64,000 nucleotides of DNA. Origin: Nitrospirota bacterium. Its GTDB lineage: Bacteria > Nitrospirota > Nitrospiria > Nitrospirales > Nitrospiraceae. A program made the translations under genes and the position numbers. The stretch is from assembly GCA_963703955.1 (NCBI GenBank), contig CAVPGK010000010.1, positions 128,001 to 192,000 on the forward strand, written 5' to 3'. Below the pieces are notes generated by a model that saw nothing but the letters and a program-made list of their open reading frames with translations, was not told the origin of the DNA and did no database searches. Shown piece after piece: positions 59,170 to 60,601 of the stretch; within the stretch, counting starts at the first letter, position 1, and the number at the start of each line of letters is the position of its first letter.

Positions 59170-59199
59170 TGGAGTCGCCTTCTAACTTGTATCTTTACT

Positions 59200-59380
59200 T
59201 TTTCATGTATGAAAACATCGTCAAAGCCAACCAGGACGGGATAGATCGGAACTAACTTGGTCGCCGAGACCGTTCAATAGCATGGGTCATCCCGTTCTGC
59301 CTCCTCAAGAGCTCGAACAGTTGCCTGGGCTGGAAAGAGCCCGCATCATACGCAAGACCGAGCCGCGATGGAGGCGTCTA
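59200..59380 (+). ncRNA. Putative IS110 bridge RNA
   Basis: Two stem / internal-loop / hairpin modules (59233-59298 and 59299-59375) whose loop sequences match the target flanks and the element ends. Confidence 0.8.
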
Positions 59381-59397
59381 GAAGAAAGGAGGCTGCG

Positions 59398-60351
59398 ATG
59401 GCGGAAGTGACACCCACCTTTGTCGGCATCGATGTGTCCAAAACACAGCTGGATGTGGCACTGCGTCCGTCGGGTGCCACGAAGTCTGTGCTCAACGACG
59501 ACCCCGGGATCAAGACCCTGGTGGAGTGGCTGGGTGTGGTCACCCCTGCGTTGATCGTGCTTGAAGCCACGGGGGGTATCGAACGGGCGGTGGTGCGGGC
59601 TCTGGTGGCAGCCGAGCTGCCCGTCACGGTGGCCAATCCACGTCAGGTGCGCGATTTTGCCAAGGCCACAGGGCAATTGGCTAAAACAGATACGCTCGAT
59701 GCTCAGATCTTGGCTCGCTTTGCCGAAGCGGTGCGCCCAGGGCTGCGCCCCTTGCCGGATGACATGACCGCGGCCCTGCGGGCGCTGCTCACCCGTCGAC
59801 GCCAACTCATCGAAATGCTGACCGCTGAAAAAAACCGGCTGAGTCGGGCTCCCCGACAAGTGCACAAGCGGATTGAGGCCCACATTGGCTGGCTGCAAAC
59901 AGAACTGGAGCGAGCCGATGCGGACCTCGATCAAACGATCCGTCAAAGTCCCATCTGGCGTGAGCAGGAAGATCTCCTCAAGAGTGTGCCGGGGATCGGG
60001 CCTGTGGTCAGTCGCACCGTACTGGCCGAGCTGCCTGAGCTGGGAAGCTTGAACCGCAAACAGATTGCGGCGCTTGTCGGAGTCGCCCCACTGAATTGGG
60101 ATAGCGGCACGCTGCGGGGGCGCCGCGCGATTTGGGGTGGTCGGGCGCACGTGCGGACTGCTCTCTACATGGCTGCGTTGGCTGCCAGCAGACATAATCC
60201 CGTGATCCGAGACTTTTACAGAAGGTTGCGTGCAGCGGGCAAAGCGCCTACCGTTGCCCTGGTTGCCTGCATGCGCAAGCTCCTGGTCATCCTCAATGCG
60301 ATGCTCAGACATCGCGTTCCGTGGCGGCCAGTAGTTGCTCAAATTCCTTGA
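59398..60351 (+). CDS. IS110 recombinase/transposase
   Basis: DEDD RuvC motifs GIDVSK, LEATG, KTD.LDA; C-terminal SVPGIG, WDSG, GGR..VR.ALYM; RBS aaggagg. Confidence 0.95.
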
Positions 60352-60601
60352 AACTGAACACAGTTGCTATTAAGTGTGCTGCAGGCCACCTGTGCAGCAT
60401 AGCGTGGTGACCTGAAAGCTCAACTGACGCGAAAGTCTACTGCAAACTCGCAGGGTTATCTAGTGGGTGGCCCTGCGTCGCCCGCCTGGATAGACGGTGA
60501 ATCCTGCAGTCTATCCAGCTCCCAGCCCGCAGTGGATCCCAGCAGACAACTTGCAGTCAGAGACGGTCCGCCGGGCTGTCTCCGTGTCTATTCGGAATGA
60601 G

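Follow-up and report, generated by a model that had tools for sequence, protein, structure and literature searches.

Organization of the locus and the IS110 element

The window analysed here is a 64,000-nucleotide stretch of contig CAVPGK010000010.1 (positions 128,001 to 192,000) from a Nitrospirota bacterium of the family Nitrospiraceae (assembly GCA_963703955.1), whose genome assembly (label G000) comprises 3.32 Mb in 28 contigs and is 82% complete. The window contains an insertion sequence (IS) of the IS110 subgroup, lying between what appear to be the attI site and the first cassette of a degenerate chromosomal integron. Read along the minus strand, a vapBC gene pair is followed by 14 residual codons of the integron integrase gene intI, attI, the IS, one gene cassette with its attC site, and chromosomal genes. 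All positions are window coordinates, and a caret in a sequence marks a junction. The element comprises the following features.

59188..60366, plus strand: insertion sequence of the IS110 subgroup, 1179 bp, without terminal inverted repeats; three copies in the genome
59186..59187, no strand: left copy of the CT core, which reads AG on the cassette (minus) strand; same CT at all three copies
60367..60368, no strand: right copy of the CT core; same CT flanks in all three genomic copies
59398..60351, plus strand: IS110-family recombinase gene, 317 aa; matches PF01548, PF02371, and NF033542
59233..59298, plus strand: target loop of the predicted bridge RNA, with outer stem, inner hairpin, and two target guides
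59312..59362, plus strand: donor loop of the predicted bridge RNA, with the left donor guide at 59317-25 and CAAG at 59353-56

The recombinase has a DEDD (RuvC-like) N-terminal domain (PF01548, 1.1e-25, 90.7 bits) and a Tnp C-terminal domain (PF02371, 3e-20, 72.8 bits), and passes the NCBIfam model NF033542, 'IS110 family RNA-guided transposase', with 230.6 bits vs a cut-off of 140. Non-coding ends of 210 nt upstream of the gene and 15 nt past its stop codon complete the element, which thus belongs to the IS110 subgroup and has an IS621-like architecture, i.e. the bridge RNA upstream and a short right end. The domain matches, the short right end, and the covarying fold described below bear out the assignment as an IS621-type element with an upstream bridge RNA, which a preliminary description of this DNA had proposed.

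Three copies of the IS are present in the genome: the window copy (site 1), a 100% identical copy at C26 (site 2), and a 93% identical copy at C6 (site 3). The first two are intact, and the C6 copy is frameshifted, with its first stop at codon 38. All three are bounded by ...TAACT^TGTAT......CAGTTG^CTATT..., the C26 and C6 copies being flanked as ...TAACT^IS^CTATTGAGT..., and these common bounds fix the element at 59188-60366. The existence of two identical intact copies indicates recent movement. In silico removal of 59188-60368 yields gccttctaaCTattaag, in which gccttctaac is the reverse complement of GTTAGAAGGC; the restoration of a cassette core site, as put forward in the preliminary description, was thus reproduced. 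GTTAGAAGGC is not enriched in the window (3 matches with at most one mismatch vs 2.4 expected). A candidate junction promoter (TTGAAA, 17 nt, TATCTT) was read by eye across the joined IS ends, and a promoter scan of the linear DNA context found none.

Bridge RNA and guide sequences

The outer stem of the target loop is formed by aggacgggat (59233-42) and atcccgttct (59289-98), one G-U pair included, and the inner hairpin by ggtc (59259-62) and gacc (59268-71). The left target guide GAACTAACT occupies 59249-57 (gaaCTAACT) and the right target guide TTCAATAG occupies 59273-80, with AATAG at 59276-80. The coordinates previously given for the CT copies, stems, loops, and guide strings proved exact throughout. 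The left guide of the donor loop, ACAGTTGCC at 59317-25, corresponds to ACAGTTG plus CT at the right end of the element. CAAG (59353-56) is complementary to the core and the first two bases of the left end; these 4 nt, found by eye, are the sole clear right-donor match.

A protein-guided scan found 528 relatives, of which 80 were kept. Most of these 80 come from Nitrospira/Nitrospiraceae assemblies; L027, labelled Methylomirabilota, is the closest, with 82% identity. In 76 aligned upstream regions, a constant scaffold reads ..GGACGGGAYAGAYCG-[9 nt]-GGTC..GACCG-[8 nt]-AGC..GGGTCGTCCCGTCC.. and is followed by a second stem-loop. With 48 representatives, RNAalifold predicted 28 pairs, 18 of which show compensatory changes. 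In this consensus fold 97.6% of the cells are paired, and none of 500 shuffles was as high on all five measures; when the pairing partners were slid by 1-3 columns as a control, 32-46% were paired.

The two variable stretches of the scaffold correspond to the insertion sites: the left flank plus core recurs in the first, and the second reads as the right flank in reverse complement. Between left guide and flank, the mean longest match was 5.7 nt in 74 loci, vs 3.4 nt after re-pairing (maximum of 1000 permutations, 3.9), and between right guide and flank it was 6.3 nt in 61 loci vs 3.45 nt (maximum again 3.9). The 74 related loci hold 49 distinct guide pairs. Taken alone, the 6-nt and 5-nt guide/flank matches of the window element could be due to chance, a doubt that is removed by the covariation of guides and flanks across the relatives, a comparison that the preliminary description had suggested. 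The donor-guide variants (ACAGTTG, ACAGTCG, ACGGTTG, and ACAGACG) likewise track the right ends of the relatives in most loci listed. On these comparisons, the upstream non-coding end is predicted to encode a two-loop bridge RNA with a conserved fold, which would be expressed and would direct recombination by the element.

In Rfam, the only match to this part of the element was the Xanthomonas small RNA sX15, on the minus strand at 59221-59378 (23.5 bits vs 55, E 0.87). This weak antisense match spans the whole bridge-RNA region, and sX15 itself may be derived from the non-coding end of an IS110-type element.

The right flank: an attI region and an integrase remnant

To the right of the element, the following features were identified.

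60369..60556, minus strand: type A attI region, non-coding, from the integrase stop to the crossover; ends ...GCAGCACACTTAATAG^
60557..60601, minus strand: 3' remnant of the integron integrase gene; reads LIPNRHGDSPADRL, stop TGA at 60559-57
60602..61217, minus strand: vapBC toxin-antitoxin pair (PIN, 6.2e-15; VapB_antitoxin, 1.7e-18), at the place of the intI body

The remnant consists of the last 14 codons of intI (...NRHGDSPADRL and the stop), which directly follow the vapC stop. None of the 62 open reading frames (ORFs) scanned in the window encodes a tyrosine recombinase.

The type A module (60369-60580, approximately 210 nt) recurs in this genome at C21 (94%) and C1 (72%), with a further 36-nt piece at C26, and 17 of 201 genomes of the order have it. 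In all 11 aligned type A copies, YYNAAC immediately precedes the first conserved position, and the left flanks at module boundaries in relatives mostly read YYTAAC or YYCAAC. In several genomes the module or its counterpart adjoins an integrase gene. At G252:C8 (L170), the module lies directly after integrase fragments (TIGR02249, 123.1 bits for the C-terminal piece, residues 236-314, and 46 bits for the N-terminal one, residues 1-65) that read ...HVLNRDGQGVDSPADRF up to the stop; it ends ..CAGACTTAATG^GTTAGATTG, beyond which lie a ribosome-binding site and an ORF of 335 aa. At G279:C1, it abuts a 92.1-bit C-terminal integrase fragment on the same strand. An intact intI (465 bits) at G309:C100 (L169) shows the same layout with a different attI sequence, ..CCATAG^TTAGCGCTCT (TTAGCGC), located approximately 190 nt past the intI stop; the attC of the next cassette begins AGAGCGCTAAC and ends GTTAGGC, with an 11-nt repeat between cassette start and R'' and a fold z-score of -6.0. 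In the present genome, the C1 type A copy likewise precedes a unit of 1474 nt that has an 11-nt repeat and a textbook attC, GCATAAC...GTTAGAC (z -4.7). As judged from these sequence relationships, the right flank is an integrase tail followed by an attI region.

Two other identities were considered for the right-flank repeat. A group II intron or known RNA was rejected, Rfam giving no match at E up to 5 and no reverse-transcriptase gene lying nearby. An IS200/IS605-type end or a miniature inverted-repeat transposable element, suggested by a subterminal hairpin beside TAAC, was dropped on the adjacency to intI.

The left flank: a gene cassette with attC

To the left of the element, two features were identified.

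58351..59185, minus strand: first and only gene cassette, starting TTAGAAGGCGA; one ORF, family not known
58345..58410, minus strand: attC of the cassette, with R'' TCGCCTTCTAAC and R' GTTAGCT; the bottom (plus) strand folds as a bulged hairpin

A unit whose start is complementary to its own R'' carries the signature of a gene cassette. Here TCGCCTTCTAAC, 789 nt past the cassette start, is one arm of a perfect inverted repeat of 12 nt whose other arm is anchored at the boundary; CATGG, a bulged palindrome, CAAC, and GTTAGCT come next. The bottom strand of this attC folds with -21.1 kcal/mol (z -2.7; reached in 1 of 200 shuffles), vs z -0.8 for the opposite strand. The same 5.5 kb contain two further perfect inverted repeats of 12 nt, so that the weight lies on the anchoring at the boundary and not on the repeat itself. 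For the methyltransferase unit beyond this cassette, no start/R'' repeat marking a second cassette was found.

The attC assignments rest on folding and repeats, and our home-made structural scan is weakly specific: its strict, fold-based form, used as the site-1 positive control, gave 13 matches genome-wide vs 2 per shuffled 1.0 Mb, and a loose pattern scan gave 185 matches, mostly noise. The possibility that the insertion site is itself an attC was rejected, because the reconstructed empty site has no R''/R' pairing fold (z -0.66 and -1.2).

The cassette ORF is a 269-codon frame (58360-59169, minus strand) that is split into 59169-58852 and 58851-58360 by an in-frame TAA (58852-54). Its product contains an R-x4-H string, RNEIIH, noticed by eye, and a neighbouring cassette in the relative L165 encodes HEPN_AbiU2.

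A second attI type and independent insertions

At C26, the identical copy is located at the crossover of a second attI type, where it adjoins the end of another module (type B). The type B module is 127 nt long, occurs in four copies in this genome and in 20 of 201 genomes of the order, and its matches start at the first base. It directly follows intI at G468:C11 (385.7 bits), G468:C21 (440 bits), G311:C1 (254.8 bits, with one TAA), and G480:C28 (fragments). At G468:C11 (L178), for example, the sequence reads ...SPADALGERLSPSQL and two stops, then type B, which ends ..GTATACTCAATAG^TTAGCCGTC. A homology of the C26 flank to type A beyond 15 nt was not significant (z 1.6), and this flank belongs to type B. 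Of 16 type A and B boundaries in relatives, 8 have an anchored start/R'' repeat no shorter than 8 nt, located 384-734 nt away; among 3400 random anchors placed in these loci, 117 (3.4%) have such a repeat. The module copies in this genome are as follows.

Type A: window 60369-60601; C21:830-1029; C1:27320-27511; C26:923-958 (36-nt piece)
Type B: C26:15688-15814; C21:137277-137403; C16:4195-4318; C13:139374-139457

Elements with the same or nearly the same guides were found in other organisms and samples. The guides of L027, AAACTAACG and GTCAATAG, are nearly the same as those of the window element, and its flanks read ..GGACTAACT^ and ^CTATTAAGTGAGCC.., i.e. CTAACT^..^CTATTAAGTG. A metagenome scan for the target-loop string returned 13 stretches, of which two (L137 and L142) are real elements, both at one site; they are flanked by GCCTAACT^ (..GATCCGCCTAACT^), and then comes a cassette with a textbook attC (GCCTAAC...GTTGGGT) and a 9-nt repeat 766 nt away. 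In one soil sequencing run (X1), a 99% identical element has the right flank CTATTGAGTATACTGACCGGTATAGTACGC, which runs on as type B, and one type A site is unoccupied. A second run (X2) holds a near-identical element (13 differing letters in 1116 bases) with the left flank ..GAGTCTAACT. In a third soil run (X3), a 91%-like relative on a single contig of depth 4.9 has T in place of the C at 59275, so that its right guide reads TTTAATAG instead of TTCAATAG. As TTTAATAG fits type A (CTATTAAG) better than type B, this may be a natural single-base re-tuning of the guide.

The target of an IS110 relative in a metagenome-assembled genome of the Gemmatimonadales (L084), ..GTCGCC[CT]AACGCCCGCC.., resembles the start of an attC, GCCCTAAC. 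This target (..GCCCTAACGCCCGCC..) was considered as an attC, and no attC fold was found in the reconstructed site.

Programmed target and alternative readings

G^TTAG is the point at which integron integrases exchange strands. The guides GAACTAACT and TTCAATAG specify approximately GAACTAA[CT]ATTGAA (core in brackets), which corresponds to TTCAAT[AG]TTAGTTC on the cassette strand, and the predicted insertion target of the recombinase and its bridge RNA is ...ACTCAATAGTTAG.... With CTAACT in the left guide and CAATAG in the right, the pair straddles the crossover G^TT, and the G of the left core (AG on the minus strand) is the G of this crossover. The right guide is matched at 7 of 8 positions by type B attI, which ends CTCAATAG^TTA, and at 6 of 8 by type A, which ends CTTAATAG^TTA. 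The target ...YAATAG^TTAG..., in which the A before G provides the CT core, is thus, by sequence comparison, found in the attI types seen here.

We therefore read the locus as the insertion of a recently active IS621-like bridge-RNA element at the attI crossover of a degenerate chromosomal integron, and assign a probability of approximately 0.8 to this reading. It draws on the anatomy of the element, the covariation of the RNA, the covariation of guides with flanks, the insertion sites, and the attI and cassette identities of the flanking DNA.

Several observations weigh against it. An integron integrase above the TIGR02249 cut-off is absent from the 82%-complete assembly (best, 62 vs 265 bits), and the attI identity rests on the adjacency to intI in relatives and on architecture. 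The fold of the empty site, which is not that of an attC, fits attI and is not positive evidence for it. A verifiable adjoining cassette is present at just one of the three IS sites of this genome, and site 3 (C6) shares just approximately 12 nt with the others, with no recognisable att module, no attC found within 3 kb, and no similarity to type A (z -0.8). At the three sites in the genome, just 6, 6, and 7 of the 9 left-guide positions are matched; a perfect 15-nt target is absent from the assembly, in which the best unrelated matches have two mismatches. No bridge-RNA transcript was seen, the sole metatranscriptome contig covering 59444-59642 inside the recombinase gene; neither a circle junction nor the empty-site joint was seen in contigs of the sequencing runs, and Rfam holds no matching family for the bridge-RNA region.

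The left-guide matches always take in TAA and the core, and this side of the target varies because it is the start of whichever cassette comes first. With respect to the integrase, the adjacency of type A to intI, the cassette at the left flank, and the second copy at a type B module support the integron reading despite its absence. An integrase gene beside the attachment site is found next to the homologous modules of relatives, and in the window it is reduced to 14 codons; a cassette with attC joined at G^TT is present in the window. The lack of an integrase above the cut-off and the 14 remaining codons together indicate that the integron platform hit here was already degenerate (defunct). 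Thus, of the proposal that the element blocks the site in front of the first cassette, the position between attI and cassette holds and a working platform does not.

Ordinary homing of a repeat-seeking IS110 element to a multi-copy repeat, with the overlap with the integron core being incidental and without consequence for integron biology, appears unlikely to us. Since relatives carry 49 different guide pairs and most of their flanks are not GTTRRRY-like, dedication to integrons is not a trait of the whole clade, and several relatives sit in shared repeats with common flanks (..cgttctcggt..cctcaacgtacc..). The modules hit here are also dispersed repeats in this genome (three type A copies plus the 36-nt piece, and four of type B), and the integron is already dead. 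However, these repeats are not anonymous, being modules of an intI 3' end and attI; the insertion point is the crossover to within the 2-nt core, and same-guide elements in other organisms lie at the same kind of junction. The preliminary description had asked whether copies with this guide occur at sites unrelated to integrons: those in the window, at C26, and in relatives lie at attI-type junctions, and C6 lacks an att module.

That the element is a general parasite of integron att sites, whose CTAAC/GTTAG guide could enter any attC or attI, is very improbable: the left guide does contain CTAAC, left flanks at module boundaries in relatives are predominantly YYTAAC or YYCAAC, and IS1111-group relatives do target attC according to the available accounts (PMC11187229; bioRxiv 10.1101/2024.02.09.579496), but all six canonical attC R' ends inspected (window attC, C1, C16, C17, L142, and L169) read ..CG^TT.. 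and so offer CG in place of the CT core and lack ATTG/ATTA on the opposite side, the sequence matched by the right guide (AATAG/CAATAG) is specific to attI, and no IS copy with this guide was found inside an attC among the loci examined. Because the CT core and AATAG occur at attI and both are lacking at attC, the element is best described as an attI specialist. The proposed guide for integron att sites in general therefore narrows to the attI types ending AATAG^TTAG, and the predicted insertions at CTAAC^T beside attC or attI sites were found at attI in the window and at C26, with none in attC and with C6 falling outside this pattern.

Proposed mechanism of insertion

Under the reading of a bridge-RNA element inserted at attI, the donor loop would recognise the joined ends of the element (ACAGTTG-CT-TG...), and the target loop would specify approximately 5'-CTAA[CT]ATTGA-3', i.e. 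TCAAT[AG]TTAG on the cassette strand, the end of attI plus G^TTAG. By analogy with IS621, the recombinase-RNA complex would use its left guide to base-pair with one strand of ...CTAACT and its right guide to base-pair with the opposite strand, at CTATTG..., and the excised circle would then be recombined into the CT core.

After insertion, the attI end ...AATAG abuts the right end of the IS, beside whose left end a GTTAGAA core is rebuilt. The attI body and the cassette are thereby physically separated and lie 1.2 kb apart, which would abolish the action of an integrase at attI. We infer that recombination follows this chemistry and that the insertion would affect cassette capture or expression.

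A more far-reaching proposal, which we offer tentatively and hold to be rather doubtful, is that an IS110-type lineage is a dedicated attI parasite in integrons with co-oriented integrases, its right guide being re-tuned between attI types and its insertion switching off cassette capture. Orphan modules composed of an integrase tail plus attI may then be a by-product of that conflict or of bridge-RNA-mediated rearrangements between attI copies.

Comparison with known systems

As far as the available accounts of IS621 and other bridge recombinases of the IS110 subgroup describe them (Durrant et al. 2024, PMC11208160; Hiraizumi et al. 2024, PMC11208158), the present element resembles IS621 in its DEDD plus Tnp recombinase, long upstream non-coding end, short right end, and CT core (PMC11208160). 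It also shares the two-loop RNA, whose left target guide is identical in sense to the left flank and whose right one is complementary to the right flank, the match of the donor loop to the joined ends, and a left-guide window of 9 nt. It differs in its natural target, an integron attI crossover instead of the repetitive extragenic palindromic (REP) sequence reported for IS621, and in its right guide, approximately 8 nt including the core vs 4 in IS621. Further differences are that its sites match 6-7 of the 9 left-guide positions and that it is known from sequence alone.

The IS1111-attC group (ISPa21, ISKpn4, and ISPst6) was reportedly first described by Tetu and Holmes in 2008 and by Post and Hall in 2009. 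Judging from the portions of the literature consulted, entry of IS1111-group elements into attC is well documented, their guidance by a seekRNA has been demonstrated (Siddiquee et al. 2024, PMC11187229), and such elements have been proposed to immobilise cassettes (bioRxiv 10.1101/2024.02.09.579496). Like these, the present element belongs to the DEDD superfamily, would be RNA-guided, and enters integron recombination sites in a specific orientation. In the IS1111-attC elements, as these sources portray them, the guide RNA lies downstream of the gene, subterminal inverted repeats are present, and one end of attC is entered; in contrast, the RNA here lies upstream, the right end is 15 nt, such repeats are lacking, and attI is entered at the crossover itself. 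With its guide region upstream, 15 nt past the stop codon, and occupied sites that are attI-type modules, the element falls outside the IS1111-attC group. The host integrons also differ, being class 1 integrons in the IS1111-attC case described and chromosomal integrons of environmental bacteria with a co-oriented integrase here. Homing to a short conserved repeat beside a hairpin is shared with the REP-targeting IS110 elements ISPpu9 and ISPpu10, as summarised in PMC12288879 and bioRxiv 10.64898/2026.03.19.712850, although the repeat here is an integrase-associated recombination site and not an extragenic palindrome.

The superfamily and the general strategy are thus known, and the subgroup, the placement of the RNA, the site (the attI crossover), and the type of host integron differ. 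No IS110-subgroup bridge-RNA element aimed at attI was found in titles and abstracts of the literature searched, although supplements of large IS110 surveys could list such targets. Bridge RNAs are under development as programmable recombination tools, and natural targets show what their guides evolved to find. The locus is a case of one site-specific recombination system parasitising another; it offers a testable way in which cassette arrays could be frozen and a set of natural guide/target pairs, including the probable single-base re-tuning. In addition, integrons with co-oriented integrases and dispersed orphan attI modules in an environmental lineage lie outside standard integron descriptions.

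Integron layout, orphan modules, and neighbouring genes

In this bacterial family, intact intI genes are co-directional with the cassettes, as judged from L169 (G309:C100), L178 (G468:C11), G468:C21, G480:C65, G462:C4, and G279:C1. The attI lies approximately 130-200 nt downstream of the intI stop, and ..ATAG^TTAG forms the end of each of the three attI sequence types. One review (PMC3575428) refers to an 'inverted integrase group'.

The genome studied here contains about eight dispersed modules consisting of an integrase tail plus attI, of two types, and no intact integron integrase. Other genomes are similar, e.g. G379, with four type B copies and a best intI match of 85 bits. Such orphan modules are scattered beside house-keeping genes, e.g. 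those for a tRNA synthetase, ychF, slp, and moaC.

To the right of the third IS copy (L003, C6:159150-159330), at least three tandem copies of approximately 22 nt contain GGAGGGGTTGAAAC, and approximately 700 nt beyond these repeats lies an ORF for a truncated Xer-like tyrosine recombinase, which scores just 36 bits against TIGR02249.

Toxin-antitoxin pairs (vapBC, parDE, and Phd/'Unstab_antitox') recur beside attI modules on the cassette strand. The loci concerned are the window (60602-61217), L002 (2831-3401), L152, L155, L157, and L159.

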